A stretch of DNA of 64,000 bases, from contig MGFX01000001.1 of assembly GCA_001792115.1 (NCBI GenBank), positions 240,606 through 304,605 on the forward strand. The letters are read 5' to 3'. The position numbers were made by a program, and so were the translations under genes. The notes under the pieces were generated by a model. It saw only the letters and a list, made by a program, of their open reading frames with translations, did no database searches and was not told the origin of the DNA. Within the stretch, counting starts at the first letter, position 1. Each line of letters starts with the position of its first letter. Source of the stretch: Candidatus Woesebacteria bacterium RBG_16_42_24. GTDB lineage: Bacteria > Patescibacteriota > Microgenomatia > UBA8517. This document shows, in pieces, positions 3,881-55,739 of the stretch.

Positions 3881-4035
3881 AAGTTCAACCCATTCGGCAA
3901 GCACAGGGTTGATGCTGAGCTTGGTTATTCTTTTTGAGTTTTTAATTTGTTTATGTTATTATTCCTACGATGTCTACAAGGTTTTTCCTTCGACTCCTTT
4001 GAGTCGCTCAGGATTTACTTTGTTCAACATGTCTT

Positions 4036-14018: not shown

Positions 14019-14045
14019 GAAGGTAGGACAAGTAAGATAGGTAGT

Positions 14046-14103
14046 AAAAGTAGAAAGGGACAAATCTACCACTTGCCATACTTGTACTACTTGTTCTACT
14101 TTT
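14046..14103. repeat. Inverted repeat (10-bp arms aaaagtagaa / ttctactttt) in the rodZ-like downstream region; possible terminator
   Basis: Read directly from the sequence. Confidence 0.3.
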
Positions 14104-14108
14104 AGGAA

Positions 14109-16227: not shown

Positions 16228-16272
16228 TAATTAGATTAGTGTAAAATTTCTATTCTAATGTTAAATAGTCAC

Positions 16273-16364
16273 AATTTCCAATTTCCAGATTCCAGATTCC
16301 AATTAGTTATCGAATCCCAAAATTTGAAATTATTTGGAGATTGGAGATTGGAGATTGGAGATTA
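16273..16364. repeat. Inverted arrays of heptamer tandem repeats: (AATTTCC/AGATTCC)x4 ... (TGGAGAT)x4, forming a potential long hairpin downstream of alaS
   Basis: Read directly: aatttccaatttccagattccagattccaat ... ttggagattggagattggagattggagatt. Confidence 0.8.
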
Positions 16365-16371
16365 ATTCGAG

Positions 16372-18600
16372 ATGGACCTCAAAAGTTTTCTGCCGCACAC
16401 AGACAAAGAAAAAGAAAAGGAATACTTCTGGTCTTTAATTATTGAGCCCGGGTGGGTACAGGCAGGCGTTTGGGATATAGAGGGGGAGAAGGCCGAAGTA
16501 ATATCCATAAGCCCTACGACTGCATGGGAAACTGAAGGAGAACTGCTTGGTGCTGCTGACGCGGCTCTTTCTGCGGCTGTTCAGAATCTCCCAGATACTA
16601 TGGTAGAGCCAACAAAGACTGTTTTCGGAGTTAACCCTTCGTGGGTGGGAGAAGGGCAAATAAAACCGGAGTATTTAGAAAGAATTAGAAAAATTTGCTC
16701 CGACCTATCGCTTTCCCCAGTAGGATTTGTGGTTTTACCGGAGGCAATTTCCCATCTAACTAAGGTCCAGGAGGGAGCGCCTCTTAATGCCTGTGTATTG
16801 GGTATTGGCAAAGATACTCTTGAAATAGCTCTTTTCAGGCTGGGAAACTTGGTCGGCGCGTCACAGATAGCAAGAAGTGTTTCTATGGTCGACGACGTTG
16901 CCGAGGGATTGGCCAGATTTTCCGGGAGTGAGGCTTTTCCCTCAAGAATCATTCTTTATAACGGGAAAGAAGGGGAACTGGAAGAGGTAAAACAAACGCT
17001 TCTAAATGTTTCCTGGGAAAGTTTTGAAAAAATTAAATTTTTGCACTCTCCTAAAGTCGAGATAATACCTCCCGAGAAGAAAATACTAGCGGTTTGCCTG
17101 GCGGGAGCTTCCGAAATTGCAAACGTGACGGGGGTTTCCGCTGCCAAGGTTATTGGAGGAGTGGTGAGGGAAGAGGTGCCTGGGCAAGCGAATATCTCTC
17201 TGCCGGAGGAAGATGTAAATCCGGAGGAGTTGGGATTTGTCTTGGGTAAAGACGTAACTTCTATCCCAAAGGTTGGTCGAGTTTCGCAGACGGCAGAACT
17301 GCTCCCCAGCCTTAGAGAAGCGTCTACCCCAAAAGCATTACCGCAAAAACTAGAGGTAGAAACACCGGCGGTCGATAGATTTGGATTTGTCAGAAACTTC
17401 AGATTTCCACAGTTTGCCTTCTTGAAAAACTTTAAGGCCTCGCTACCCAAACCAGGATTATCTTTCCCCGGCAAAAAAGTTCTTACTTTCGGAGTTATTT
17501 CACTGGCCATAATTTTTATTTTGGGATTTGTTGCTTGGTGGTTTTTACCAAAAGCCCTGGTTACAATTTATGTTTCCCCCCAAAAACTTGAGGAAAGAAC
17601 CGAAGCTACGGTCGACCCGGAAGCAGACGCTCTTAATTTTTCGGAGAAGATAATTCCCGGCAAGGTTCTTACAACGAACGTTTCGGGGGAAAGGACCAAG
17701 GCAACTACTGGAACAAAAACAGTAGGAGACAAAGCAAAAGGAAACGTAATAATCCAAAATGGTACGGCGTCAGCCATAAATCTTGCAGCTGGCACAATTT
17801 TGGTTTCCAACTCTGGGTTTAAGTATGTACTAGACGCTTCCGTCTCAATCCCCGCTGCAATTTCTCCTTCAAACCCCGGGACTACTACGGTTGACGTTGT
17901 CGCAGATAGTATTGGAGCAGAATATAACTTGGCCAAAGACGAAGTTTTTGACGTGGGAAATTATCCCAGAAGTGAGGTAGATGCAATTGCAACCTCCGAT
18001 TTTACTGGAGGGTCCAGCCGTCAAATTCCGGCTGTTTCAGACGAGGATCAGAGCATGCTGGAAGAAGAACTTCTCGACGAACTTATGGCTAAAGCAAAGG
18101 ATGACTTGTCCCAAAAAGTTGGCGAAAACGAAACGTTTATTACTGAATCCGCAGTAAGTACTCTTACCGAGAAAACTTTCGGCAATAAAGTAGGAGATGA
18201 GGTGGAAATTTTGAAACTTGACCTCGCAATAGACGTTAAAGGACTTTCTGTATCTCAAGGGCAACTAACAGATTTGGCCATGGAGACTCTCAAAGGAAAA
18301 GTTCCCGACGGATACATTTTAAGAGAGGGGCAGATTGCAAGCGAATTTGAGTTTCTAGAAGAAAGCGGGGGCGGGGCGAAAGTTATGGTTCTTTTTAGGG
18401 CCAACCTTCTCCCAGAAGTTAACCCCGATGAAATTGCAAAAGAAATTGCCGGAAAGTACCCGTCCCTCGCCGAGGATTACCTAACCAATATAAGGGGTTT
18501 TTCCCGAGCAGAAATAAAAATAAACCCGAGCTTGCCAGGGAAACTCAAATCCCTGCCACGCATAAGTCGAAATATAGAAATAGAAATTGCCGCCGAGTGA
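16372..18600 (+). CDS. Large hypothetical protein with a single central TM helix (742 aa)
   Basis: Long ORF with a TM segment (LTFGVISLAIIFILGFVAWWFL). The C-terminal half is T/S/G-rich. Its 3' end overlaps the sortase gene by 14 nt. Confidence 0.4.
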   Translation: MDLKSFLPHTDKEKEKEYFWSLIIEPGWVQAGVWDIEGEKAEVISISPTTAWETEGELLGAADAALSAAVQNLPDTMVEPTKTVFGVNPSWVGEGQIKPEYLERIRKICSDLSLSPVGFVVLPEAISHLTKVQEGAPLNACVLGIGKDTLEIALFRLGNLVGASQIARSVSMVDDVAEGLARFSGSEAFPSRIILYNGKEGELEEVKQTLLNVSWESFEKIKFLHSPKVEIIPPEKKILAVCLAGASEIANVTGVSAAKVIGGVVREEVPGQANISLPEEDVNPEELGFVLGKDVTSIPKVGRVSQTAELLPSLREASTPKALPQKLEVETPAVDRFGFVRNFRFPQFAFLKNFKASLPKPGLSFPGKKVLTFGVISLAIIFILGFVAWWFLPKALVTIYVSPQKLEERTEATVDPEADALNFSEKIIPGKVLTTNVSGERTKATTGTKTVGDKAKGNVIIQNGTASAINLAAGTILVSNSGFKYVLDASVSIPAAISPSNPGTTTVDVVADSIGAEYNLAKDEVFDVGNYPRSEVDAIATSDFTGGSSRQIPAVSDEDQSMLEEELLDELMAKAKDDLSQKVGENETFITESAVSTLTEKTFGNKVGDEVEILKLDLAIDVKGLSVSQGQLTDLAMETLKGKVPDGYILREGQIASEFEFLEESGGGAKVMVLFRANLLPEVNPDEIAKEIAGKYPSLAEDYLTNIRGFSRAEIKINPSLPGKLKSLPRISRNIEIEIAAE

Positions 18601-34695: not shown

Positions 34696-35004
34696 ATGCC
34701 GGTAGGAAGATTACGAGTCAAGCTAAAATCCTACGACCACCGTGTCATCGACGAGGCGGCAGGAAAGATATTGGATACGGCCCTGGCGACCGGAGCTAAA
34801 ATAGTTGGCCCCATTCCCCTCCCCACAACACGCACCATAATGAGCGTTAAAGAATCCCCTTTTACCGATAAAGATGCGCAAGAGCATTACGAGATGCTGG
34901 TCCATAAAAGGCTAATCGATATCATCGACCCCAGTGAGCGCACAATTGATTCCCTCTCCAATCTCGACCTCCCCGCAGGTGTCAGTATAGAAATCAAAAT
35001 GTAG
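34696..35004 (+). CDS. rpsJ: 30S ribosomal protein S10
   Basis: 102 aa, S10 family (RLRVKLKSYDHRVIDEA...). Confidence 0.95.
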   Translation: MPVGRLRVKLKSYDHRVIDEAAGKILDTALATGAKIVGPIPLPTTRTIMSVKESPFTDKDAQEHYEMLVHKRLIDIIDPSERTIDSLSNLDLPAGVSIEIKM

Positions 35005-35172: not shown

Positions 35173-35214
35173 GCAGCTTGAATCTTTTCCGCATTTTCTT
35201 CATAGTGAAGAAGT

Positions 35215-35784
35215 ATGAAAAAGAATTCTTCCGATGAACGGGGTAGCGTTCCTGTAATAATCGGAGTAATTATTCTCGCGATAGTCGTATTTGGAATATC
35301 TTATTGGACCTACTTCAAATACTACAGACTCGCCTATACTGACAAAACCTATAATTTTTCACTAATGAATCGCAGAGGGTGGCACGAACTTCCAAAAGAA
35401 GAAGGCGTGTATTATTCATTGGGCACATCCGATGTTCCAGGCGGAAAGGTGGTATCGACCTTCAGGATATCGCCGATTACCCGGAAGGATGATACTAGCA
35501 TTACAGACTCTTCTTCATTCCAAAAAATATGCAGCGACCTAATTAAAGAAATAAACTACACAATCCTGGGCTGGTTTGATGTAAGGTATAGCGGTTTAGA
35601 GGGACATGTTTGTAAAAGTGAGGGAAAGGCTGCCGATATAGATAGAATAAACATTTTCAGTATCTATTTACTTATGAATCCGGGCGGGACATACGATTAT
35701 ATGATCTTCACGACTTATCCAAAAGGAAACCTAGTTGAGGAAGCGAAAGTGAATGAGATGTTGCGTTACTTCCACGCAGATTAA
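35215..35784 (+). CDS. Hypothetical membrane-anchored protein
   Basis: An N-terminal TM helix (VPVIIGVIILAIVVFGISYW) is present. No recognisable motifs. Confidence 0.4.
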   Translation: MKKNSSDERGSVPVIIGVIILAIVVFGISYWTYFKYYRLAYTDKTYNFSLMNRRGWHELPKEEGVYYSLGTSDVPGGKVVSTFRISPITRKDDTSITDSSSFQKICSDLIKEINYTILGWFDVRYSGLEGHVCKSEGKAADIDRINIFSIYLLMNPGGTYDYMIFTTYPKGNLVEEAKVNEMLRYFHAD

Positions 35785-35870
35785 AAGTAGAGTTAATATT
35801 AATTTCCCATCGAGATTAAGATGTAGTTTCTCGCGCCAGCCTCGGAAAAGTTGTATAATCCGTCCCTGTT

Positions 35871-36386
35871 GTGACTAAAGAAGTCGCCATAACCCCTGAG
35901 AGCCAGCGTGAGCTGGTTAGGGCGTTTTTGGCAAAACTTGGAGGGGTTGCCATCGCGACGCCAGATATGAGTAGGGACTACAAATTTGTAGCCGTACTGC
36001 CTGAATTAGACGAATGGACTCGGCTTTTTTCGTATGACGGCGCTTCAGTAAAACCCGACTCTATATGGGAAAAATTACACATTCAGAATGTAAATATTAC
36101 TGACTCGACAATGATTTTTTTACGAATAGATGGCAATGTTGCAAAGACAAAAATTGTCGAGGTAGATACTGCCGGATGGGATGAGACTGATTTACAAAGA
36201 GGACACGTTTTGGGATTTAGAGAAAAACCGTTAGTTTTTGATAGGGCACAAAGGATTCTTAGTCATTTGAAAAAAACGGCCTCAAGATTCTTTGTGGTGG
36301 GGTTTCCCATAGACAATCCCAACGACCATAAGCTTATGGTTCCTATCAGAATGGGTGGGGACGATATAGGCGAAGACGATTTTTAA
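35871..36386 (+). CDS. Hypothetical protein (GTG start, 12 nt after a TATAAT box)
   Basis: ORF with coding-like composition. A TATAAT box lies upstream at 35853-35858. Confidence 0.4.
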   Translation: MTKEVAITPESQRELVRAFLAKLGGVAIATPDMSRDYKFVAVLPELDEWTRLFSYDGASVKPDSIWEKLHIQNVNITDSTMIFLRIDGNVAKTKIVEVDTAGWDETDLQRGHVLGFREKPLVFDRAQRILSHLKKTASRFFVVGFPIDNPNDHKLMVPIRMGGDDIGEDDF

Positions 36387-36654
36387 AAAAGCAAAAACTA
36401 TTTTCCGCCTTCACCTACATTTTGGCGGATGAAATAGAAAGAAGGTCGAAAAAATCGTAATATAATCAAAATGGAGAGAGAACAGCAGATTGTTGAAGCA
36501 AAACGAGTTTTGCGCCGACAACTTAGCCTTCGGGGTAAACCACATACGCGGCATATAAGGATGCACCGTCAGGCCGCCGAAGATAATCATAACAGACTCC
36601 CCGCCCCACGAATTTAAGTGGCAACTTTAGCTTCAAAGGGGTAGAATCTAGAAA

Positions 36655-37095
36655 GTGTTAAAGGTGAATGACAAAGCTCCCGAGTTTAAACTACCCGATC
36701 AAAAGGGCAATTTACACAGCCTTAGCGATTATAAAGGGGGTTGGCTTTTGATTTATTTTTATCCGAAGGATTTTACTCCGGGTTGTACCAAAGAAGCCTG
36801 CTCATTCAGGGATAATTTTTCGCGCCTTAAAGACAAGCTGCAACTAGTTGGCATAAGCGGGGACAGCGTAGAAAGCCACAAAAATTTCAGCGAAAAGTAT
36901 AATTTACCTTTTACAATACTTTCCGATCCGGAAAGAAAAGCGATAAAAAATTACGGCACAAATGGACTGATTTTTGCCAAAAGAACTTCTTTTTTAATAA
37001 ACCCTCAAGGAACAATTGAGAAAATTTACGAAAAAGTCGATCCCACCACCCACGCCGAAGAAATCCTTAAAGACATTTCTTCCCTGACAGCTTAA
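36655..37095 (+). CDS. bcp: Peroxiredoxin, Bcp-type thiol peroxidase
   Basis: The FTPGCTKEAC peroxidatic-cysteine motif is present. 146 aa. Confidence 0.8.
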   Translation: MLKVNDKAPEFKLPDQKGNLHSLSDYKGGWLLIYFYPKDFTPGCTKEACSFRDNFSRLKDKLQLVGISGDSVESHKNFSEKYNLPFTILSDPERKAIKNYGTNGLIFAKRTSFLINPQGTIEKIYEKVDPTTHAEEILKDISSLTA

Positions 37096-37190
37096 ATCAT
37101 CCTTTGAAAATCTGGCAAATTTAACCCCTAGAGAGCCTGCAACGTTAAAATTTTGGTTAATAATTATTTACGTTGTAAAATACGGGCAGA

Positions 37191-37664
37191 GTGACTGATA
37201 TAGACGCTTTAACCAATAAATCAAAAAAGGTAATCGACACAATTGAATATATCGATCTTGCAACCATAACCGAAGATGGAAAGCCCTGGAACTCACCTTT
37301 ATGGTTTGTAAGAGACGATAAGTACAACCTTTATTTTTACTCACCCAAATACACCCAACATTCAGAGAATATAAGAAACAACGGCAATGGATTTGTTGTT
37401 ATTTACGACTCGAGAGCTCCGGAAGGCACAGGATTCGGAGTCTATATGACGGTTGAAGTGAAAGAGCTAAATACGGTTTCCGAGGTCGACGAAGCCCTCA
37501 AATGGGTTTATAAGAAAAAGAAAAAGAAAAGGACACCGCAGGAGTTTTTGGGCAATTCCCCTAGAAGGATTTACAAGGTTACTCCCAAGGAGGCCTGGGT
37601 AAATGACGCTGAATTGAAAAATGGTTTTTACCTAGACTATCGAATTCCAATAAAACTTACATAA
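37191..37664 (+). CDS. Pyridoxamine 5'-phosphate oxidase-like FMN-binding split-barrel protein
   Basis: LATITEDGKPWNSPLWFVRDDKYNLYFYS is typical of the PNPOx-like / general stress protein 26 family. Confidence 0.55.
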   Translation: MTDIDALTNKSKKVIDTIEYIDLATITEDGKPWNSPLWFVRDDKYNLYFYSPKYTQHSENIRNNGNGFVVIYDSRAPEGTGFGVYMTVEVKELNTVSEVDEALKWVYKKKKKKRTPQEFLGNSPRRIYKVTPKEAWVNDAELKNGFYLDYRIPIKLT

Positions 37665-37670
37665 ATAAAT

Positions 37671-38138
37671 ATGGGCAGTGTGAATAAGAAAAAACTAGTA
37701 ACTTTTTTAACCGGGGCTCGTGCAAACACCTATGCGGCTGGTAAGGGAAAGGTAAAACCAGTTTTTCCGGGCTCGACCCAGCTTGAATATAAGGAGGGAG
37801 ACTGGCTATATCGCGACATTTACAATTTGGGAAATAAAATCTTCGTGGGTCTTGAGACAGTCTATTTCAAGGGGAAACCCGTCTGGTCGATGTGCTATTA
37901 CGGAGATTTTAAAAAAATGACGGAAAAAGAAATTGATGAGATTCTGCGGGAAGCCTTAATTAAATACAAAGATAAAGTAAGACTTTGGTACCAGGTGGAG
38001 TGGAAAAACAAAAACTTCAAGTATATTTGCACACCCGACTCCCGAGAAGGCATAGAAGAAGTGTCCGGACTCGAGGAAATTTATAAAGACCGAGAGAAAG
38101 TTTATTATCTTTATTACGCCGGCGGCCTCATAGGCTAA
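37671..38138 (+). CDS. Hypothetical protein, DUF5680-like
   Basis: YAAGKGKVKPVFPGSTQLEYKEGDWLYRD...GKPVWSMCYYG resembles a family that I know only as a domain of unknown function. Confidence 0.35.
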   Translation: MGSVNKKKLVTFLTGARANTYAAGKGKVKPVFPGSTQLEYKEGDWLYRDIYNLGNKIFVGLETVYFKGKPVWSMCYYGDFKKMTEKEIDEILREALIKYKDKVRLWYQVEWKNKNFKYICTPDSREGIEEVSGLEEIYKDREKVYYLYYAGGLIG

Positions 38139-38205
38139 CGGCACATTCCTCGCCCCAGCCTCGGTCATATTTTTATTTGAACACTGGGAAATTCGAAGGC
38201 GGGAA

Positions 38206-38904
38206 GTGTTAAAATCAATTGTGAAATTTGACCCGGTTAAGCACTGGAACGATCGCCATTTCGAACTTCCAAAAAATAGAGATACTTCTTCTTACGCGAA
38301 AGACAAAGAAAAATTTTTTCCTCGAAATTCCCTAGTCTGTGATTTGGGTGGCGGTGTTGGAATAGACTCAAATTACTTTTTAGATAAAGGACATGAAGTC
38401 TACCTTCTGGACATTTCTGACTATGCGCTCAAGGCTGCCCGCAACACTGCGGTTTCAAAAGGCCTTGGCTCCCACCTCATTACCAAAGAGGTAGATTTTT
38501 CGGTAGGTATGTTTCCTCTGGAAGACGGTTTGGTCGATATTGTCTATTCAAGGCTTGCCCTTCATTACTTTCCCCTCGATCGTATGAAAGAAATATTTTC
38601 CGAAATTTATAGAATTTTAAAAAATGGAGGGAAGGCGTTCATAGCCGTAAAGTCGCCCGACGACAAAAGGGAAATGGGAGCCCTCAGAAAAATTGCAAAG
38701 GAAACAAGTCCTGGAATTTTTGACGAAAACGGCCTGATTAAAACTAGATTTACAAAAGTGCAGTACAAAACAGTTCTTAAAAAAGCCGGAGTGTTAAGTT
38801 TTGAAGTGCGAGATTGTGTTGAACATTTTGGTAAAGGTAAAGTTTATGTTAAATCCAAAGCAGAAAAACTTCTATATATAGAAATCATAATAAATAAAGT
38901 TTGA
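38206..38904 (+). CDS. Class I SAM-dependent methyltransferase (small-molecule type)
   Basis: The glycine-rich motif I is VCDLGGGVGID. LDISDYAL follows, with post-I motifs (VDIVYSRLALHY ... LKNGGKAFI). Confidence 0.7.
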   Translation: MLKSIVKFDPVKHWNDRHFELPKNRDTSSYAKDKEKFFPRNSLVCDLGGGVGIDSNYFLDKGHEVYLLDISDYALKAARNTAVSKGLGSHLITKEVDFSVGMFPLEDGLVDIVYSRLALHYFPLDRMKEIFSEIYRILKNGGKAFIAVKSPDDKREMGALRKIAKETSPGIFDENGLIKTRFTKVQYKTVLKKAGVLSFEVRDCVEHFGKGKVYVKSKAEKLLYIEIIINKV

Positions 38905-39125
38905 CTTTCGGGATTTTTAAATTAAGGGGTCCGGCCCATTCATAAATCTCAATTTTAATCCTGAGTGAAATCGAAGGATTATAATCCCGAGCGAACTTGT
39001 TCTGAGTAACCTCGAAGGAGTCGAGGGACTTCTGGCAACTTTAGCCTCGAGAGAGTAGAGTACCTCAAAGTTATTTCATGGACAGGTTGGGCCATTGACA
39101 ATATGACAAATTTATCATAATATAA

Positions 39126-39422
39126 ATGAAGTTAATTTTTGATCCTAGGGCTGAAAAGTTCCTGGATAAAATTAGGGACAAAGAAAGAACAAAGGTATTT
39201 GAATATATTCTTTTATTCGAGGAATACGGATTTGAACTTGATAACAGATACCTTAAGAAGGTAACGAAAAATATTTGGGAGTTAAGGCCTAAAAATATAA
39301 GACTATTTTTTATCAAGAGAGCCACAAATTATTTAATCGTTCACGCAATGTATAAAAAATCCCAGAAAATAACCAAGAAAACGCTAAAATTGTTAGAAAA
39401 AAGAATTAAAAGTTACCTATGA
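39126..39422 (+). CDS. Type II toxin, HigB/RelE superfamily (phage Gp49-like)
   Basis: WELRPKNIRLFF... is characteristic of Gp49/HigB-like toxins. Its 3' end overlaps the downstream HTH gene by 4 nt. Confidence 0.6.
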   Translation: MKLIFDPRAEKFLDKIRDKERTKVFEYILLFEEYGFELDNRYLKKVTKNIWELRPKNIRLFFIKRATNYLIVHAMYKKSQKITKKTLKLLEKRIKSYL

Positions 39423-39730
39423 AAGCAAAAAAAATAGACACATCGAAATTCATTACTTTCCACGAGCTTAGAAGAAAGTGGATGAAAGATCCGGAGTTTG
39501 TAAGGGAGTGGGAAAAGTTAGAGCCCCACTATCAAATAGCAAGACAAATGGTTGGGGCCAGAATCAAAAAGAAAATGTCCCAGGAGGAACTTGCCAAAAA
39601 AATTGGAACCGGGCAGGCGGTAATTTCAAGACTCGAAGGAATGAATGCCAAGCCATCAATTTCACTTTTGAAAAGAGTTGCCGACGCATTGGACACACCA
39701 ATAAAAATAACAATTAACCCCGATCGGTAG
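39419..39730 (+). CDS. XRE-family HTH antitoxin (HigA-like)
   Basis: HTH: MSQEELAKKIGTGQAVISRLE. The C-terminal region is DUF-like (KPSISLLKRVADAL). Confidence 0.65.
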   Translation: MKAKKIDTSKFITFHELRRKWMKDPEFVREWEKLEPHYQIARQMVGARIKKKMSQEELAKKIGTGQAVISRLEGMNAKPSISLLKRVADALDTPIKITINPDR

Positions 39731-39788
39731 GCCATTCTAGATTCTGGCAACTTTAGCTTCAACCTCGGGAAAGTAGTAGAATATCCAA

Positions 39789-47591: not shown

Positions 47592-47805
47592 ATTTGCTAA
47601 TATCTCCGGAAGAAAAGCTGTCAAAGCATTTCTGAAATTTGGCTACGTCCACAGTCACTCCTCCGGCGATCATGCAATTCTTCAAAAGAAAGGCGCACCT
47701 ACCTTATCGATCCCATTACACAAGGAGATAGCTCCGTTTTTATTAAAGTCTCAAATTAAAAGAGCGAATATTAGGCCCGATGATTTCCTGAAAGCTTTAA
47801 AATGA
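47584..47805 (+). CDS. hicA: HicA-family mRNA interferase toxin
   Basis: GRKAVKAFLKFGYVHSHSSGDHAILQKKGAPTLSIPLHKEI is YcfA/HicA-like. It overlaps hicB by 8 nt. Confidence 0.7.
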   Translation: MPRFANISGRKAVKAFLKFGYVHSHSSGDHAILQKKGAPTLSIPLHKEIAPFLLKSQIKRANIRPDDFLKALK

Positions 47806-48114
47806 TCAGTCCGGTAGGTAACCTTTCCCCAATAAATTTGACCCCCTCCGTCGCTAAAGCTTTGAAGAGCTAGGCCATAATCCCAGGTTTAGTTTCAACA
47901 CCATTGTCATTACCCTATAGTCAATTTGCTTTCCTGTGTGAGTCGTGCTATACTTCTTTTCTAGTTGGCAGATTGAAGAAATAGATCTGCTTAATTTTTG
48001 AATTTATTTTGAAGTCGGTAAGATAAAGATACCCCAAATCTTTCGTATTTATTCGTATCTTGTCCCCCACATCACGATTTTCTCATTTAAGCAGTTTTAT
48101 TTCTTTAATACTTT

Positions 48115-49317
48115 ATGTATAACAGGCATAACCATCGCTCAAACGGACACGGAGGGGGAAGAAGGTTCCAAAACAGATTTCCCTCCAGAAGCCAAAAAAC
48201 TGACGCCGAAATCGTGAGAGCGATTCAAGCTATCCAAATTACAGAAGCCCAAGAAGGCGATAGCCCCCAGAGCGCCTATATCCCCAAAAACAGATTTGAA
48301 GATTTTGCAATATCCGGGCAGCTTAAGAAAAACATTTCAGATAAAAGGTATGTAACCCCTACTCCCATTCAGGATCAGGTAATACCGGCAATACTTCAAG
48401 GCTCGGACGTTATAGGAATTGCCAATACAGGAACGGGCAAAACCGCCGCATTCTTAATTCCTTTAATCGAAAAAGTCTGCAATGACAGAAGCCAGAAGGT
48501 ACTTATAATTACTCCCACCCGTGAGCTTGCCTTGCAAATTAACGAAGAACTTTATGGCTTCTCCTATGGTTTGGGAATTAAGAAGGCACTTTGTGTTGGG
48601 GGAATGAATGAAAGAAAGCAAAGATATGAATTGTCATGCATTCCCAATTTTGTAATAGGCACACCCGGGCGCTTAAGGGAATTTATTGAAAGTCGGGCAC
48701 TTCCTATTTCGGAGTTTAACAATATCGTAATTGATGAGGCAGACAGGATGGTAGACATAGGGTTTATCGCCGATATTAAGTATTTTATTTCGTGCCTTCC
48801 CCAAACTCGCCAGTCGCTTTTTTTCTCTGCAACAATTCCCCCTAAGGTAAAGCTGATTCTCGGATCTTTTGTTCGAAACCCGATAACGATTTCGGTAAAG
48901 CTAAAAGAAAGCATAGATAATATTAAGCAGGATATTATTAAGGTTACCGATAGCCAGGGGAAGGTGGACCAGCTAGAGAACATCCTTTCTCAGGAAGGCT
49001 TTAATAAGGTTCTTATTTTTGGACGTACAAAATGGGGAGTTCAGAGACTTTCGAATGAGCTTGTAAGGCGCGGCTTTAAGGCCGGGGCTATTCACGGAAA
49101 CAAAAACCAAAGTCAAAGGCAAAGGGTTTTGGATGACTTTAAAAATAGCAGAATCTCTATTCTTTTGGCTACGGACGTAGCTTCCCGGGGACTCGATATT
49201 GAGGATGTAAGTCACGTAATAAACTACGATTTACCGAATACCTTCGAAGATTATATTCATAGGATTGGAAGAACGGGCAGGGCAAACAAAAAAGGCGTTG
49301 CCTTAACCTTCGTTTAA
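48115..49317 (+). CDS. DEAD-box ATP-dependent RNA helicase
   Basis: The Q-motif region is present. Motif I is ANTGTGKTAAF, motif Ia is PTRELALQ and motif II is DEAD (VIDEADRM). SAT, HRIGRTGRA and an N-terminal Arg/Gly-rich tail are also present. Confidence 0.85.
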   Translation: MYNRHNHRSNGHGGGRRFQNRFPSRSQKTDAEIVRAIQAIQITEAQEGDSPQSAYIPKNRFEDFAISGQLKKNISDKRYVTPTPIQDQVIPAILQGSDVIGIANTGTGKTAAFLIPLIEKVCNDRSQKVLIITPTRELALQINEELYGFSYGLGIKKALCVGGMNERKQRYELSCIPNFVIGTPGRLREFIESRALPISEFNNIVIDEADRMVDIGFIADIKYFISCLPQTRQSLFFSATIPPKVKLILGSFVRNPITISVKLKESIDNIKQDIIKVTDSQGKVDQLENILSQEGFNKVLIFGRTKWGVQRLSNELVRRGFKAGAIHGNKNQSQRQRVLDDFKNSRISILLATDVASRGLDIEDVSHVINYDLPNTFEDYIHRIGRTGRANKKGVALTFV

Positions 49318-49358
49318 AAACCAAAAAATTCGCCCCCGTTCTGGTATATGATACTTAT

Positions 49359-49697
49359 ATGGATGATTCGCTAGTTTGCCCCTCTTGTCATATTGAAGTA
49401 CGTTCAACCGATTATTTTTGCTACAACTGCGGCAAAAATCTTAAGCCCAAGCCTCTTTCTACTTCTTTAACCCAACAAATACTAATTTATTTGGGAAGCG
49501 TATTCCTGCCGCCCTTGGGGCTCGTCTGGGGAGTCCGTTACCTGCGCCAGGAAGATAACACTTCAAAAATTGTGGGGGTAATCTCTATTGTTTTAACCGC
49601 TATTACTTCGGTTTTATTAATAAAATTCACAAATGACCTGATAAAAACAGTAAACGAGCAGGTAAATAGCCAACTTCAAGAGATGCAAGGTTTTTAG
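49359..49697 (+). CDS. Zinc-ribbon plus two-TM protein, hypothetical
   Basis: CPSCH...CYNCG is followed by hydrophobic helices. Confidence 0.35.
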   Translation: MDDSLVCPSCHIEVRSTDYFCYNCGKNLKPKPLSTSLTQQILIYLGSVFLPPLGLVWGVRYLRQEDNTSKIVGVISIVLTAITSVLLIKFTNDLIKTVNEQVNSQLQEMQGF

Positions 49698-49772
49698 GAT
49701 AATCTTAGGACTATAGAAATATGTTCCCACATTGTAATTGTCACCTAATCCTCAGTATAATTTCATTACATT

Positions 49773-50015
49773 ATGAGTGAGCGCGAAGCAGACTTACGTT
49801 GCCCATTTGATGAAGAACGTCCGTGTCTCGATGGGTGCGAACTTCGGCCTTTCGTTTTGAGGATGTTGGCTATATATCATCATCTAGCCCCCCCGGATGA
49901 AGTAAGAAAATCAATTGTAACTTGTCCCTCAAGACGAGGGGACGGCGAGAGAGCAATAACTGGAGGGGTAAACAACCACATCAAAGAAAAATTTTGCCTG
50001 CATTCTAGGCATTAA
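49773..50015 (+). CDS. Hypothetical Cys-rich small protein
   Basis: ORF only; no recognisable motifs. Confidence 0.25.
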   Translation: MSEREADLRCPFDEERPCLDGCELRPFVLRMLAIYHHLAPPDEVRKSIVTCPSRRGDGERAITGGVNNHIKEKFCLHSRH

Positions 50016-50272
50016 AAGAACTTCCTTCTTTGAAGCAAATTTGTGCTATACTTAGATATTGAACTCAGATTCTCCAGTTGCTAAATTGATCGATACTTTC
50101 TTGCAAAGAGGAGGAAGGATAGATAAATATTATCTTCGAGGTACAAACCAATCAAAACGCTCCCTGGTTTATCTACACGGATGGTTTTCGGGGCAGAATA
50201 TCAAATCCGCAATCCTCAAAGCCTTCGGAAAGGTTTAGAATAGCTAGAAGCAACTTAATCTTCTTAACTTGC

Positions 50273-50527
50273 TTATGCAGCTTTTTGGGAGATGTTATGG
50301 GTTCTTCTTTCTTTGGCTTCCGTTTGCCTTCTTACATTGGCCAGTTCTCTCTCGTCTCTTAATTTTTGATCTTTGACAAGCTGTCTATCCACAATTGTCT
50401 GACAATCGGGATCGGGACAGGCAGTAAGCTTGGTAACAATAAGCGAACTACCTATGTATTCTTTATAAGTTTTTACAACAACTCTTACTTTTCCGCACCT
50501 CATACAGACATTTAATCCCGTATTCAT
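50273..50527 (-). CDS. Hypothetical zinc-ribbon protein
   Basis: CMRCG ... CPDPDC. It is on the minus strand, convergent with the flanking genes. Confidence 0.3.
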   Translation of the reverse strand: MNTGLNVCMRCGKVRVVVKTYKEYIGSSLIVTKLTACPDPDCQTIVDRQLVKDQKLRDERELANVRRQTEAKERRTHNISQKAA

Positions 50528-50548
50528 ATAATCTTTTAGAGTGAATTT

Positions 50549-50860
50549 TTACCAGCGCCTAGATTGCCTTTGCCCTCCGCCTCCTCTGTCATATCCCGCG
50601 GAACTTCTTTCCTCTCGCGGCCTTGCTTCATTGACTATGATTTTTCTTCCACCAAAATCCTTACCGGAAAGCTCTTTTATAGCTTTATCGGCGTCTGCGT
50701 CATTTTTATATTCTACAAAACCGAATCCTTTTCCTTGACCGGAATATCTGTCGGTAATGACTGTTGCGCTTGCAACCTCACCAATTTCTGCGAAAAATTG
50801 ACTGAGTTCTGCGTCAGTAGCGGTGTAGGGAAGACCTCCTACGAATAATCTTTTTGCCAT
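50549..50860 (-). CDS. RRM-type glycine-rich RNA-binding protein
   Basis: RNP-2 is LFVGGL and RNP-1 is KGFGFVEY. The C-terminus is RGG-rich. Confidence 0.75.
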   Translation of the reverse strand: MAKRLFVGGLPYTATDAELSQFFAEIGEVASATVITDRYSGQGKGFGFVEYKNDADADKAIKELSGKDFGGRKIIVNEARPREERSSAGYDRGGGGQRQSRRW

Positions 50861-50992
50861 TTATTATCTCACCACCTTTGTGTACTTACGTGAGGATTAT
50901 TCCATCTAAGAAGCTTTAAACCGCTTGGTAGAAGTAATCGTAACCTAAGTAACTAATGATACTTTATCATAAAAAATGTAAAATAGCAAAGT

Positions 50993-51664
50993 ATGTATAA
51001 ACTTTCTCCTTCCGATTTCAAATACCTTTACCAGGACTGCAAGCACTGCTACTACCAAAAGGTGAAAAAGGGAATTACCCTGCCCTCAATCGGAATGCCC
51101 GGAGTTTTTTCCAAAATGAATTCACTTCTACAATCGGCGATTATGGGAATGAATCTAAAGGATGTAAATTCCGAACTCCCATCAGGAATAATCGAAGTTA
51201 AGGAAGGATTTCTGCGATCCGCCCCAATTCCGCCCTCCAAAAAGTCCTTTATAAGTGGGCGATTCGACATTACTTCGAAACTTGAGGGCGGCTCAATTGC
51301 CGTAATTGACTTTAAAATTACCGACCCGACAGAGGAAAAAATCCAAAAATACTCAAGTCAGCTCCATGCCTATAAATTCTCCCTCGAAAACCCGTCTTAT
51401 GGTGAGGCCAAAAAGGTGGCCAAGATGGGAATTATAGCCATAAACCCGGAAGACATTTCTTTTCCGGGGGATAAAGTAATTTTTAAGGCAACCCCGACCT
51501 GGTTTGAAATAAAGGAAGATATGGATAGTTTTTATAATTTCATATCCGAAGTAACAGAGCTTTTGGAAGGACCCACCCCTAAAGAAAATCCTGATTGTGC
51601 GTGGTGCAAATACCGCCTCTGTTTCGCCCACCCCGAAGCCACACAGGATGAGATTCCTTTTTGA
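50993..51664 (+). CDS. Cas4/RecB-family PD-(D/E)xK nuclease with Fe-S cysteines (stand-alone)
   Basis: A GRxD-like motif (SGRFDIT), a D/ExK motif (AVIDFKIT) and QxxxY (QLHAYKF) are present. Cys motifs are CKHC at the N-terminus and CAWCKYRLC at the C-terminus. Confidence 0.55.
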   Translation: MYKLSPSDFKYLYQDCKHCYYQKVKKGITLPSIGMPGVFSKMNSLLQSAIMGMNLKDVNSELPSGIIEVKEGFLRSAPIPPSKKSFISGRFDITSKLEGGSIAVIDFKITDPTEEKIQKYSSQLHAYKFSLENPSYGEAKKVAKMGIIAINPEDISFPGDKVIFKATPTWFEIKEDMDSFYNFISEVTELLEGPTPKENPDCAWCKYRLCFAHPEATQDEIPF

Positions 51665-51679
51665 GTTCTCCGAACCCAA

Positions 51680-51708
51680 TTGACGTCTGAAGCTAAATGA
51701 TTTATAAT
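51680..51708 (+). promoter_or_regulatory. Sigma70-type promoter (TTGACG-N17-TATAAT) restoring transcription into rplC and the S10/spc genes downstream of the island
   Basis: -35 at 51680-51685 and -10 at 51703-51708. Confidence 0.6.
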
Positions 51709-51808
51709 CTTGGCATCAATGGAGGTGACTAGCCAGAAATAACCTCTACATAAGAAGTAGGATGTGCCAGTTGAGGGCGCCTCCGGCGCCTTTTTTTGTG
51801 AGAAAAAG

Positions 51809-52702
51809 ATGATCAATGCTATTTTAGCCTCAAAAGGGAAAATGGGAGCGGCCTTCGTCAAAGGCCGAAGGTTTGCTGTGACAAAAGTTCTGGCCGGCCC
51901 GTGCGTGGTCATCCAGGTTAAAAAAATGGAAAAAGACGGATATTGGGCGGTCCAGCTTGGCTTCGGAGAAAGAAGAATTAAGAATATTAGTAAGGCCATG
52001 CAAGGACACCTCAAGTTAAGTCAAAACTCAAAAGTCAAAACTCAAAGCTCTAATCTCAAATCTCAAAACACCCTCCCCAGATTTATAAGAGAGGTAAGGC
52101 TAGAAGAAGAACCAAAAATGAATGTTGGAGATGAAGTTAAAGCCTCCGACGTTTTTAATGTCGGAGATATTGTTAGTGTTTACGGCATTTCCAAGGGTAA
52201 GGGTTTTCAGGGAGTGGTAAAGCGCTGGGGATTTGCGGGGGGTCCCAGAACCCACGGACAATCTGACCGTGAGCGAGCACCGGGCTCAATCGGCCAAGGA
52301 ACAACTCCGGGCAGGGTTTATAAAGGTAAACATATGGCAGGAAGAATGGGAGGGGATAGTGTTACTGTTAAAAATTTGCAAGTGGTTTCTATTGAGCCTG
52401 AAACAGGACTGATTGAGATTTCGGGTCCTGTACCGGGGGATACGGGAGGCCTTCTTAAGATAACGAGAACAGCTAAGGGCGAGCTTGAAGGAATTCAGGA
52501 AGTAGCGGCCCAGGTTGTAGAAGGAGAGCCCTCCTCCGCCGAGGCTACGGAGGACAAGGTCCCCGCCGACGCTGGCCTGCCTGCCGGCAAGGCAGGAGCT
52601 GTGGCGGGCAAGCCCGCCGACGAGGCTCCAACCGAAAGCGGCGCACCCGCCGCAACTAAAGAGGTCCCAGCTGCTAAAGGAGGTCAAAGTGACAAAAGCT
52701 AA
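51809..52702 (+). CDS. rplC: 50S ribosomal protein L3 with an internal low-complexity insertion and a long Ala/Pro/Glu-rich C-terminal extension (ORF track starts at 51764)
   Basis: MINAILASKGKMGAAFVKG... is L3-like. GKGFQGVVKRWGF and HGQSDRERAPGSIGQ are L3 motifs. Confidence 0.9.
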   Translation: MINAILASKGKMGAAFVKGRRFAVTKVLAGPCVVIQVKKMEKDGYWAVQLGFGERRIKNISKAMQGHLKLSQNSKVKTQSSNLKSQNTLPRFIREVRLEEEPKMNVGDEVKASDVFNVGDIVSVYGISKGKGFQGVVKRWGFAGGPRTHGQSDRERAPGSIGQGTTPGRVYKGKHMAGRMGGDSVTVKNLQVVSIEPETGLIEISGPVPGDTGGLLKITRTAKGELEGIQEVAAQVVEGEPSSAEATEDKVPADAGLPAGKAGAVAGKPADEAPTESGAPAATKEVPAAKGGQSDKS

Positions 52703-53357
52703 TGTCTATTCGGCAAAAGGCGTAAAGAGCGGAAGCGTAAATCTTCCCAAAGATTTTAATGAGAATCAGAATTTAGCGCTTTTGGCGCAAGCAATTCGGG
52801 TTCAGACCGCACGCGCCCATATCGGACTCGCTAAAGTCAAAACCCGAGCCGAGGTTGATAGAACCAAAAAGAAAGTCTATCGCCAAAAAGGTACAGGAGG
52901 TGCAAGGCACGGAAGCCGAAGTGCCCCTATTTATGTTGGCGGTGGAGTTGCCCACGGCCCCAAGGGAGTAAAAAGGGAGCTGACTCTCCCCAAGATTCTC
53001 GCCAAAAAGGCTTTAAATATTGCCCTGACGCTTAAGGCAAAAGACGGGGAAGTAGTTGTCGTAAATGGCCTGGGGGCAATAGCAAAAACAAAGGAAATAC
53101 AGAGTTTAATCGATAAAATTAAAAAAACTAGGGAGTTAAAGAAGGGACGATTTACGTTTGCATTAGCTAACACTAACCTTGAGAGCCGAAGGAGCCTGAA
53201 AAATCTTGAAGGAGTTGCGGTCTTGCCTTACGAAAATCTTAACGCATACAGGGTATTTTACGGGGGAGTTTTGGTTTTAGATAAAGATGTTTTTACTAAG
53301 AAACCCAAAACTTTAAACTCTAAACTCAAAACCACTAAGATAGAAATAAATAAATGA
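52689..53357 (+). CDS. rplD: 50S ribosomal protein L4
   Basis: L4 family (RQKGTGGARHGSRSAPIYVGGGVAHGPK). Confidence 0.9.
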   Translation: MTKANVYSAKGVKSGSVNLPKDFNENQNLALLAQAIRVQTARAHIGLAKVKTRAEVDRTKKKVYRQKGTGGARHGSRSAPIYVGGGVAHGPKGVKRELTLPKILAKKALNIALTLKAKDGEVVVVNGLGAIAKTKEIQSLIDKIKKTRELKKGRFTFALANTNLESRRSLKNLEGVAVLPYENLNAYRVFYGGVLVLDKDVFTKKPKTLNSKLKTTKIEINK

Positions 53358-54672: not shown

Positions 54673-55086
54673 ATGGAAATAATTGCGACACAGAAATATT
54701 TAATCACTTCTCCCAAGAAATTGAGGGAAGTGGCGGCTGTTGCCAAAAAGCTTTCGCCAATACGGGCAATTGAGATCTTGCCTTTTATCGGAAAACGCGC
54801 CGCAACTCCCCTCTTAAAGGTGATAAAGAATGCAATCGCCAGTGCCAAGGCGAAGGGTAGCAGCGAGGGGGAACTTGCTTTTAAAGAAATTCAAATAGGC
54901 GAAGGCCCGAGACTCAAAAGGTTCAGGGCCGGAGCCCATGGCCGGGCCAAGCCTTATAAGAGGCGGATGAGCCACATCCGAGTTGTGCTAACAACTCAGA
55001 ATTCCCAAATTCCAGTTTCCAAATCCCAAATAAATTCAAATGCCCAAAATTCTAGTGCGGAAAAGAAAAAGGAGGGGAAGAAATAA
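54673..55086 (+). CDS. rplV: 50S ribosomal protein L22 with a heptamer-repeat-encoded C-terminal tail
   Basis: L22 core (ATQKYLITSPKKLREVAAVAKK...) plus the tail NSQIPVSKSQINSNAQNSSAEKKKEGKK. Confidence 0.9.
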   Translation: MEIIATQKYLITSPKKLREVAAVAKKLSPIRAIEILPFIGKRAATPLLKVIKNAIASAKAKGSSEGELAFKEIQIGEGPRLKRFRAGAHGRAKPYKRRMSHIRVVLTTQNSQIPVSKSQINSNAQNSSAEKKKEGKK

Positions 55087-55088
55087 CC

Positions 55089-55739
55089 CGTGGGACAAAA
55101 AATTAATCCGGTGGGAATGAGGATTGGGAGCTTTCTGCCTTGGAAGTCGCGTTGGTTTGTCGAAGGTGAAAAGTACAAAGAGTTTTTGTGGAAGACGTCA
55201 GAATTAGATATGCACTTATGGATAAGCTTAAACTCGCAGGAATAACGTCTGTTGAAATTGAGAGGCTTCCCAAATCCATGGTTCTTAATTTAACCGTATC
55301 GCGCCCCGGAGTTGTAATAGGTAGAGGTGGGTCCGGAATTGAGGAGGTTAAAAAATACGTTTTGGGAATTATAAAGAATGTTCGAGGCGAACTTCCCAAA
55401 GACTTGAAGATCGATTTAAAGGTTACCGAAGTAAAAAATCCTGAAATTTCGGCACATTTAGTTGCTTCAAGAATTGCTGGGGAGCTCGAGCGAAGGATGC
55501 CCCACAGGCGAGTGGTATCTAAAGCGACCGAAAGAGTCATGGCGGGAGGCGCCTTGGGAGTGAAGGTCGTCTTGGGTGGAAGAATCGGCGGAGCTGAAAT
55601 TTCGAGAGTCGAAAAATTCCAGATGGGTTCGGTTCCGACGCAAACATTAAGAGAAACAATAGATTATGCTCAAATACCGGCACTATTAAAAAGAGGATAC
55701 GTCGGAGTAAAAGTCTGGATCCACAGGAAGGAAGAGTAA
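55089..55739 (+). CDS. rpsC: 30S ribosomal protein S3; the 5' end reads in three frame segments (apparent +1 / -1 frameshifts)
   Basis: From GTG 55089, frame A gives VGQKINPVGMRIGSFLP, the S3 KH-domain N-terminus. After the T3 run at 55139-55141 the S3-like sequence WKSRWFVEGEKYKEFL continues only in the +1 frame. After the T5 run at 55183-55187 it returns to frame A (VEDVRIRYALMDKL... to the stop at 55739). Confidence 0.8.

Follow-up and report, generated by a model that had tools for sequence, protein, structure and literature searches.

INTRODUCTION

Heptamer repeats are an already known class of bacterial repeats. In Xanthomonas, GGGAATC units form 186 arrays, with 70 inverted (convergent) pairs that have stem-loop potential (Rehm 2015, PMC4692102). 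About 90% of these arrays are intergenic, at a mean distance of 28 nt from the upstream open reading frame (ORF), and four units are usual; their length and sequence differ between species, they are transcribed, and 83% of the repeats retain their gene context from one species to another (PMC4692102). Nostoc PCC 7120 has heptamer arrays of GGGGA(T/C)T (Rehm 2015, PMC4692102), and structures of the G-quadruplex or i-motif type were proposed for the G-rich heptamers of both genera (PMC4692102). According to two later articles that refer to the original survey, heptamers are the over-represented class among the long simple-sequence repeats of bacteria, for which polymerase slippage favouring 7-nt units was proposed as the cause (Mrazek 2007 via PMC4679880, PMC4692102). 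Direct repeats of TAACTGA occur in marine Beggiatoaceae, cyanobacteria and Bacteroidetes, as 2-6 copies just 5′ of start codons (MacGregor 2015, PMC4679880). They are also present within ribosomal-protein operons (before L3, S4 and S1), and a translational role was suggested; 169 sets are direct and one is indirect (PMC4679880). Here, we describe arrays of AAATTCC-type heptamers, in part arranged as inverted pairs, in a 64-kb stretch of DNA (hereafter, the window) from Candidatus Woesebacteria bacterium RBG_16_42_24, a member of the Candidate Phyla Radiation (CPR).

Small dispersed palindromes offer a second comparison. Repetitive extragenic palindromes (REPs) are 20-40 nt long and GC-rich, carry a GTAG or CGTC tag, have a RAYT (Y1 transposase) partner and number >100 copies per genome. 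[quoted passage not shown] Rickettsia palindromic elements (RPE) are reportedly selfish repeats found in frame in essential genes, as described by Ogata et al. in 2000. Cyanobacterial heptamers named STRR are said to have been described by Mazel et al. in 1990. A Calothrix report is among the works that PMC4692102 cites.

In the present study, arrays of one heptamer class are found at the tight gene junctions of a CPR genome. We favour, with a probability of about 0.55, the view that they are parts of small palindromic insertion elements that form one dispersed family, have arms of heptamer arrays, are remodelled by slippage and are co-transcribed as hairpins with at most local effects on mRNA or translation. 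New with respect to described heptamers are the CPR host, AT-rich units with no more than GG, the status of the arrays as insertions in operon junctions of 3-20 nt, the shared ends bearing a stop codon and a Shine-Dalgarno (SD) sequence, and the in-frame copies in ribosomal-protein genes.

RESULTS

Period-7 arrays in the window

An initial annotation of the window had placed heptamer arrays after alaS, between rpmJ and rpsM and between rplN and rplX. Its gene names proved sound: the alaS product matches PF01411, gene calls for L14, L24 and S13 exist in this genome, and the L36 sequence was found. Repeats were searched for in the window with Tandem Repeats Finder (TRF) and with a lag-autocorrelation scan at 18/21 or 17/21 matches, the latter with 200 block shuffles as a reference. 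TRF recovers all arrays at the three sites, where period-7 arrays are also seen in the sequence and in the lag scan. At 18/21 matches, the scan of the window gave six regions at period 7, one at period 14 (2 × 7) and zero for the other periods among 2-13 and 15. At 17/21 matches, seven period-7 regions were observed, as compared to 0.01 expected from the shuffled window. Counts of strong arrays at other periods, none of which is enriched, were three at period 6 and two at period 9, with none at periods 4, 5, 8 and 10-12 in the window. A count of the word AATTCCA showed no enrichment in the window (22 matches versus 17.8 expected), and it is the tandem arrangement that carries the signal.

The arrays of the window consist of 4-8 head-to-tail units each. 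They are mainly intergenic and adjoin or overlap the stop codon of the upstream ORF, that of rplE lying inside an array. Sites absent from the initial annotation are rplE/rpsN, rplC, rplD, rplV and rplO, together with a weak array at 447-477. Three inverted pairs are present in the window and one more just past its end, where a full two-arm copy at rpsK/rpsD, arrays in the rpsD/rpoA spacer and an array in the L13 tail were found. Six assemblies made independently from near-identical strains (99.9% identity) have the same arrays, without any difference, in the ribosomal-protein cluster, showing that these are not assembly artefacts; the contigs of these assemblies stop short of the alaS site.

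Anatomy of the junction elements

All arrays described below are given on the + strand of the window. The spacer between alaS and the next gene (16228-16371) is 144 nt long, of which ~125 nt are an insertion relative to the 0-19 nt of relatives. Its 5′ arm (16273-16300) reads AATTTCC AATTTCC AGATTCC AGATTCC. A 33-nt loop follows (16301-16333), the 3′ part of which, TTTGAAATTAT, is common to family members at other junctions. The 3′ arm (16334-16363) is (TTGGAGA)x4+TT and thus contains four GGAG motifs, the last of them 11 nt ahead of the ATG at 16372. After this arm comes AATTCGAG, a truncated 3′ module.

The rpmJ/rpsM copy has the same organization. Four AAATTCC-type units (AAATTCC AAATGCC AAATTCC AATTTCC, 63583-63612) are followed by a loop of degenerate heptamers (63613-63642), ~70% identical to the alaS-site loop, and by the 3′ arm CTGGAAT TTGGAAA CTGGAAA CTGGAAA (63643-63671). 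The 3′ end (63672-63692), ..GAAGCCCAGGCGACTAAT, abuts the ATG of rpsM. It includes a GCGAC end motif and then TAAT, apparently the former stop with its spacer; at this place the sequence of the closest relatives is GGATAATTATG. At rplN/rplX, the insertion (57010-57087) starts right behind the TGA stop of rplN (57007-57009). It consists of a single arm, AAATTCC AAATTCC AATTTCC AAATTCC (57013-57044), and of a 3′ module, TGTCCTGAGCGACCGAAGGGAGTCGAAGG (57059-57087), which provides the SD sequence. The rplE/rpsN element (57966-58053) contains an inverted pair (57966-58029) whose 5′ arm, ATAGTAC ATAGTAA ATAGTGC AGAGTGC AGAG, overlaps the rplE stop (57977-57979); its 3′ arm is ACTATGCACTTTGAACTCTGCGCT and its module GCGACTAAAAGGAGCAATAT. 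Finally, the weak array at 447-477, of AAATTAG type, lies immediately 5′ of the nusA ATG and forms no hairpin; it is possibly a degenerate member of the family.

The elements are lineage-specific insertions in tight gene strings

The alaS region was compared with that of three relatives (L206, L207 and L208, with AlaRS identities of 80, 78 and 75%). In these, alaS is separated from a conserved next gene of ~740 residues by 18, 19 and 0 nt, respectively, versus 144 nt here. The junction is ..TAAattttgcttttatttacaATGGACCTC in L206 and L207, and both genes abut in L208. Genes that flank the arrays are co-oriented, 0-19 nt apart in these relatives.

For the ribosomal-protein cluster, 80 relatives were available (SecY identity 69-91%). 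The rplN/rplX, rpmJ/rpsM and rpsK/rpsD spacers measure 3-10 nt in most of them (TAAAAATG-like), and the rplE/rpsN spacer usually 6-20 nt. Short spacers are also those of the closest relatives, L145 and L126 (91% SecY identity), with 36 nt at rplE/rpsN in L145. Inserts of 70-150 nt are found in the lineage of the window and, scattered, in L127, L129, L133, L134, L154, L156, L161, L168, L171 and L184; nearly all of them are inverted quasi-periodic arms. In the pool of 98 long junction spacers, autocorrelation reached 0.378, 0.357 and 0.339 at lags 7, 14 and 21, versus a background of ~0.31. Tandem arrays in the relatives comprise 37 of period 7, versus 24 of period 9 and 10 of period 6, and three 21-kb relatives contain zero period-7 arrays. 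The short spacers of relatives therefore identify the arrays as lineage-specific insertions within operons and, as some relatives have none, their activity is lineage-specific.

This result does not agree with the proposal that the arrays mark the boundaries of operons. All sites fall within gene strings that are conserved, either alaS with its next gene or the interior of S10-spc-alpha, and the spacers at these places are mostly of 3-20 nt in relatives. The arrays follow gene ends, that is stop-start junctions, and not operon ends. The statement that they are not simple terminators can be maintained: no T-run comes after the stems, and a terminator scan was negative at the alaS site. Indeed, in the intrinsic-terminator test the post-stem sequences, AATTCGAGATG and GAAGCCCAGG, had no U-run.

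Copies at different junctions share non-repeat ends

The initial annotation had also likened the arrays to REP-type or satellite elements. The distribution of the copies fits such dispersal: paralogous copies sit at different junctions, and presence or absence varies among relatives, even between 99.9%-identical strains. The three full copies, at the alaS site, rpmJ/rpsM and rpsK/rpsD, can be aligned over their whole length, from the 5′ flank through four units, the loop and four units to the start codon. Within the window, the alaS and rpmJ/rpsM copies are 70% identical, loop included. Pairs of copies from different junctions of one genome are 89% (L127), 88% (L154) and 82% (L168) identical over ~90 nt. 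Overall, identities of 70-89% over 90-120 nt at different junctions are those expected of dispersed copies in the sense used for MITEs.

The similarity extends beyond the repeats. A loop-proximal segment, TTTGAAATTAATTGGAAATTGG, is common to different junctions and genomes. Just before the downstream start, a 3′ module ..GAGCGAC[CT]GAA[AG]GGAG.. is found, confined to such inserts in ~1 Mb of sequence from relatives, and most copies end with ..GCGAC followed by the extended SD sequence YGAARGGAG. These shared non-repeat ends argue for dispersal rather than for slippage alone. Stop codons follow a pattern too. At the insert-bearing rplN/rplX and rpsK/rpsD junctions the stop is always TGA, most relatives having TAA, and in several lineages GA(A/G)AAAT.. 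comes directly after it; rpmJ/rpsM inserts are preceded by TAG, TGA or TAA. Some copies open with a stop of their own, TGA or TAG, and then GA(A/G)AAAT.., and several inserts end with ..GCGAC and then TAA(T)ATG or TGAAAGGAG. Judged from these junction sequences, the element would lie after the final sense codon and ahead of the former stop or spacer, and would carry its own stop and often an extended SD sequence. With such an end the downstream gene stays translatable and the operon unbroken.

Single arms can be remnants of two-arm elements. In L006, a 99.9%-identical strain, a complete element is present at rplV/rpsC, with 5′ arm, loop, 3′ arm and CCGACTGAAAGGAGG module, of which the window keeps the 5′ arm only.

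Three further candidates were discarded. Apparent insertions of 155-207 nt in L004 are runs of N. A hypervariable contingency locus was dropped because unit number is constant across the six 99.9%-identical assemblies. Upstream of rpsO (3985-4015), the 3′ module occurs in reverse orientation; in relatives, a different small hairpin within a conserved leader takes this place, and the copy probably belongs to the leader rather than being an element.

Arrays inside ribosomal-protein coding sequences

Four arrays contribute to coding sequence in the window. In rplC, ~8 units (AAGTCAA/AACTCAA/ATCTCAA, 52015-52073) are in frame and encode a segment, LSQNSKVKTQSSNLKSQNTL, that is ~12 residues longer than the GAIKDKKA of relatives, which it replaces in the loop that runs from GHLK to PRF(I/L). 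The unit CTCAAAA matches the local His-Leu-Lys codons, and L143, L172/L173 and L165 have independent arrays at the same spot, built from local sequence. In view of this local seed and of the parallel arrays, the rplC array looks home-grown by slippage. The other three lie in C-terminal extensions. The rplD (L4) tail array, AAACCCA AAACTTT AAACTCT AAACTCA AAACCAC (53299-53338), and the rplO (L15) tail array, AAAATCC TAAATCC AAATTAC TAATTTC (60503-60534), encode such extensions, of 13 residues in L15. Within that of rplV (L22) lies the 5′ arm AATTCCC AAATTCC AGTTTCC AAATCCC (55003-55032). The array-derived extensions of L4, L22 and L15 are missing from L145 and others, and in-frame arrays are absent in the closest relatives. 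The units AAAACTC and AAATTCC are stop-free in every sense frame, which may be how arrays survive in coding sequence.

A random distribution of the arrays, including inside genes on both strands, had been named in advance as an outcome that would favour neutral microsatellite expansion. The arrays in the L3 loop and in the L4, L22 and L15 tails go part of the way towards it; the arrays track gene ends. Also in rplC, but having nothing to do with the heptamer array, an in-frame deletion distinguishes L002 from the window: 21 nt (52574-52594) are missing from the Ala/Pro-rich tail at the C-terminus of L3.

RNA folding of the elements

The segment 16262-16372 folds as sense RNA with -40.8 kcal/mol (z -6.8) and 39 pairs, including 8 G-U, and as antisense with -23.4 kcal/mol. 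For 63575-63685, the values are -24.2 kcal/mol for sense versus -36.3 for antisense. Sense RNA is the better-folding strand in 15 of 21 elements and antisense in the other 6, the mean difference being 3.2 kcal/mol in favour of sense, in cases that are non-independent. RNAalifold, applied to a MAFFT alignment of six rplE/rpsN elements, gave 12 consistent pairs only, from an alignment that is unreliable because periodic arms slip in register. For the elements, searches of Rfam 15 (at gathering and at E<=1) returned only plant miRNA-precursor hits at chance level (E ~0.8-0.9). A hammerhead-like CUGACGA..GAAA in the 3′ module was considered and rejected: most copies lack stem II, the core is incomplete and no Rfam match was obtained.

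Occurrence in other phyla and viruses

The pattern ARWTTCC x3 was used to search across phyla. It was found in >119 genomic stretches from many phyla, including Acidobacteriota, Bacteroidota, Planctomycetota, Desulfonema, Nostoc, Lysobacterales and many Patescibacteria. Period 7 predominates at these loci, and for 34 of the 127 arrays a partner in inverted orientation lies no more than 200 nt away. The same pattern is present in 55 viral contigs; in one of them, a hairpin unit of 78 nt is repeated three times in tandem ahead of a start codon. The arrays peak at four units, in genomes (61/127) as in viral contigs (30/62). When any heptamer is counted in Woesebacteria, arrays with 3, 4 and 5 units number 27, 13 and 6, a monotonic fall with no four-unit peak. 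The four-unit preference of ARWTTCC arrays may be a detection bias that stems from the search pattern, since longer imperfect arrays get more chances to match. The share of cross-phylum arrays inside ORFs was dropped, the measure by stop-free frames being too permissive.

Two side observations were made among these sequences. Arrays of AATTTCC/AAATTCC are apparently in frame in other Patescibacteria (L016, L022, L026, L038 and L052), for example in glycosyltransferase-like ORFs; array-derived peptide insertions may thus be common in CPR proteins. Besides, very similar long hairpins (..AAATTCCAAATTCCAAGCACCAAAT..CAAATCCCAAATTCC..) recur in L019, L020, L024, L051, L074 and L112, metagenome-assembled genomes assigned to Clostridia, Aminicenantes, Bacteroidales and Saccharibacteria, and reflect either horizontal spread or mis-binning.

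Other features of the window and its relatives

Hairpins of other types were also seen. At 14019-14108 (+), a hairpin of 9-nt period (z -5.3) has arms GTAGGACAA.. facing ..TACTTGTAC that repeat GTAG (GTAGGACAA GTAAGATAG GTAGTAAAA GTAGAAAGG); its architecture is that of the heptamer elements, with a different period. A second family of junction hairpins, with ~10-nt periodic arms (AATAAGTACC-type), is found in L133 (secY/adk), L171 (infA/rpmJ and rpsK/rpsD) and L184 (rplN/rplX). A structured insert of ~115 nt (..TTGCTTAGCAAATTTGGGAGGAGTTGCCGGCTAATAGCTGAAAGT..GAAAGCGAAAGCCGAGCAA..) is common to L167 rpmJ/rpsM and L173 rpsC/rplP. Two more kinds of tiny dispersed hairpin, (T)AAGCGGTAATCCGCTGTTATT and CTGCCTGACGGTAGGCAGG-like, were met repeatedly, either at junctions or within 3′ modules: at rplN/rplX and rpsK/rpsD in L146, L149, L150, L152, L143 and L169, at rplE/rpsN in L172 and in the rplO tail of L127. 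In many relatives (e.g. L168, L172 and L174), the map/infA spacer has a conserved AAGCTAAT..ATTAGCTTGTTTTTTTG stem with a T-run, terminator-like or an infA leader; in the window this spacer is of 1 nt only.

Between rpsJ (34696-35004) and rplC (51809), the window contains 16.5 kb (~35200-51700) of mostly low GC (0.36-0.41). The genes of this stretch include a TdeIII-type restriction enzyme and a DNA methylase, two DUF3800, a MazG-like, a Gp49-like and HicAB, a helix-turn-helix gene together with a reverse transcriptase of 341 residues (45979-47004), as well as a DEAD-box helicase, a PD-(D/E)XK nuclease and an RRM-type RNA-binding protein. The stretch has the look of an island, defensive or accessory, that was inserted in the str/S10 gene string. 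A DUF3800-IX RNA (40447-40515, - strand, 50.3 bits) lies between both DUF3800 genes and is the sole Rfam match of the window at gathering score. About 10 nt 5′ of the rplC start, a terminator-like sequence GGCGCC-TCC-GGCGCC-TTTTTTT is present (51770-51799), so that rplC may need its own promoter. Finally, rpsC (GTG 55091) is split into two frames in the window by the lack of one A at 55189, present in all six near-identical assemblies. This is probably an assembly or consensus error and not a pseudogene.

DISCUSSION

Relation to described repeats

The arrays of the window resemble those of Xanthomonas and Nostoc in their tandem 7-nt units, their period-7 excess, their position near the upstream stop, their inverted pairs, their commonly four units and the differences in length and sequence among close relatives. 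The unit sequences GGAATCT, GGGATTT and GGAAATT are one base off GGGAATC and GGGGATT. In contrast, the main units here (GGAGATT, GGAAATT and GGAATTT) have GG only and fall short of tracts of three or four G, making a three-tetrad G-quadruplex impossible. Most relatives lack the elements, whereas the Xanthomonas repeats largely keep their context. The shared loop and end modules, which point to dispersal, and the in-frame ribosomal-protein copies further set the present arrays apart from both genera. As in the STRR and Mrazek repeats, short tandem heptanucleotides are lineage-specific and mostly intergenic, but the host is a small CPR genome and not a large cyanobacterial one; the two-arm palindrome with conserved ends lies outside the STRR description as far as checked. 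With the TAACTGA repeats, the arrays share their presence inside ribosomal-protein operons and their scatter over phyla. However, TAACTGA is a single fixed unit, almost never inverted, whereas the present arrays use varied units and typically form inverted pairs.

The likeness to REPs, to the bacterial interspersed mosaic elements (BIMEs) that group with them and to MITEs lies in small, non-coding, dispersed intergenic palindromes whose presence varies between strains and, as predicted for the present elements, in co-transcription with flanking genes and an ability to alter mRNA fate. Here, however, the arms are made of tandem heptamers and the elements, of 75-125 nt and AT-rich, are longer than REPs; no REP-type GTAG or CGTC tag was found in the AAATTCC family. 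Tolerance of in-frame additions (surface loops and tails) in essential protein genes recalls RPE. RPE are palindromes of 100-150 nt with a family consensus, whereas the coding insertions here are single-arm, except for rplV, where 5′ arm and loop are coding.

Origin and consequences of the elements

In the reading that we favour, the dispersed insertion elements are non-coding and ~75-125 nt long, each arm being a short tandem array, usually of some four heptamers that belong to the GGAAT-core class (AAATTCC/GGAATTT, or sequences one base away). Copies are found at stop-start junctions between closely spaced genes of some Candidatus Woesebacteria lineages and would spread by transposition or ectopic conversion. 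Slipped-strand mispairing would then lengthen, shorten or degrade the arrays, and loss of the 3′ arm would leave single arms. Arrays that are stop-free in sense frames would be tolerated in coding sequence as loop insertions or C-terminal ribosomal-protein tails. Once co-transcribed, the elements are predicted to fold into long imperfect mRNA hairpins, which would most likely act locally, on how the mRNA is processed or how stable it is and on how accessible the ribosome-binding site downstream is. It is unlikely that the elements terminate transcription or delimit operons.

Several observations weigh against this reading. The rplC case makes it look as if some arrays at least arise in place without a mobile copy. 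No transposase, RAYT or other candidate mobilising gene was seen among the scanned proteins of the window, in an examination that covered ~72 kb of this genome, and the flanking duplications are ambiguous (GAACC at rpsK/rpsD, CTAA at rpmJ/rpsM, none at alaS). Unit number did not change among the six near-identical strains. Moreover, some copies are better conserved than neutral sites, which neither a purely selfish nor a neutral reading predicts. Between the window and L127, the rplE/rpsN hairpin is ~93% identical (counted on the alignment) and the whole spacer 85%, the flanking genes being 68-83% identical with 35-67% at third-codon positions; likewise, L168 and L133 elements are 74-78% identical versus 40-51% at third positions. 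At rpmJ/rpsM, by contrast to rplE/rpsN, window and L127 diverge strongly. In our view, certain copies are under constraint or were renewed recently, and we see no uniform conserved function.

Growth in place could account for part of the data. In this scenario, with neither mobility nor function, slippage preferring 7-nt units and hairpin template switching between the arms would build the arrays from local seeds, as with CTCAAAA in rplC and other seeds expanded at the same site in L172 and L165. It would accommodate the single arms, the lineage-dependent unit sequences and the monotonic fall in unit number of Woesebacteria heptamers (27, 13, 6), and agrees with the over-representation of heptamers among long repeats as related in later articles (Mrazek 2007 via PMC4679880, PMC4692102). 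Yet a spacer of 3-10 nt gives no seed for a 110-nt palindrome, the loop segments and the GAGCGAC..GGAG module are common to different junctions and genomes, and same-genome paralogues are 82-89% identical over ~90 nt. As a general explanation, we consider it unlikely. Slightly less unlikely, and still a tentative idea, is a distinct, undescribed junction-seeking mobile element of CPR, which would insert at stop codons with its own stop and SD sequence, leaving operons functional, be spread or generated by a dedicated sequence-specific activity and have relatives with units of the GGAAT-core class across many phyla and phages. A little more weight goes to selected cis-acting mRNA hairpins, a possibility to be kept in mind though far from probable: the elements would be processing sites for RNase III or another enzyme, stabilisers that give adjacent cistrons independent fates, or devices that mask or expose the downstream SD sequence, which translation of the upstream gene would open. 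Orthologous junctions are indeed conserved well above synonymous sites, and all three stem substitutions between the window and L127 at rplE/rpsN (3/3, read from the alignment) retain pairing in sense RNA. The better sense folding of 15/21 elements, the 8 G-U pairs of the alaS copy, the overlap of 5′ arms with the upstream coding end and the SD sequence at the 3′ foot of the stem point the same way. Against such selection, most relatives including the closest ones (91% SecY identity) do without the elements, and one element is present or absent between 99.9%-identical strains. The rpmJ/rpsM copy is better folded as antisense, and in L127 the hairpin of the corresponding copy is lost (z +1.5). 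The sense bias itself is weak, 15 versus 6 non-independent cases, and the 12 consistent RNAalifold pairs come from registers that slip.

Two other readings are much less credible. The units might be read as such, either by a protein that binds GGAAT-type heptamer arrays or as a two-tetrad G-quadruplex or i-motif that competes with the hairpin. By analogy with the G-rich heptamers, one could invoke a unit class that recurs across phyla one base from GGGAATC and GGGGATT, the four-unit peak of ARWTTCC (61/127 and 30/62), as in Xanthomonas (Rehm 2015, PMC4692102), and the gene of an RRM-type RNA-binding protein that adjoins the ribosomal-protein cluster. But the G-tracts are GG only, many members have no G-runs (AAATTAC, CACTTTG, AAAACTC), and the four-unit mode, which may reflect the search pattern, is missing for heptamers generally in the clade; this makes the reading improbable. 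The most remote is terminator-like punctuation of operon ends, as first proposed for these arrays. The arrays do follow stop codons, and rpmJ/rpsM corresponds to the border between the spc and alpha operons in E. coli. Nevertheless, the absence of a U-tract, the location in conserved tight gene strings, the lack of arrays in most relatives, their presence in coding sequence and the fact that elements carry the SD sequence of the next gene leave it hardly any room.

Implications

Because the ancestral spacer of 3-20 nt is known from dozens of relatives, the ultra-compact operons of these bacteria form a clean natural experiment in which gains, losses, arm deletion and paralogous spread can be read directly. 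The data show that essential ribosomal-protein operons tolerate the entry of arrays, as does even the coding sequence of ribosomal proteins. For annotation, such inserts account for unusual C-terminal tails and inserted loops of CPR proteins as well as for long intra-operon gaps. One unit class spans CPR bacteria and the repeats of Xanthomonas and Nostoc type. If a junction-seeking element exists, its dedicated activity would explain why 7-nt units of one class dominate the long repeats of bacteria.

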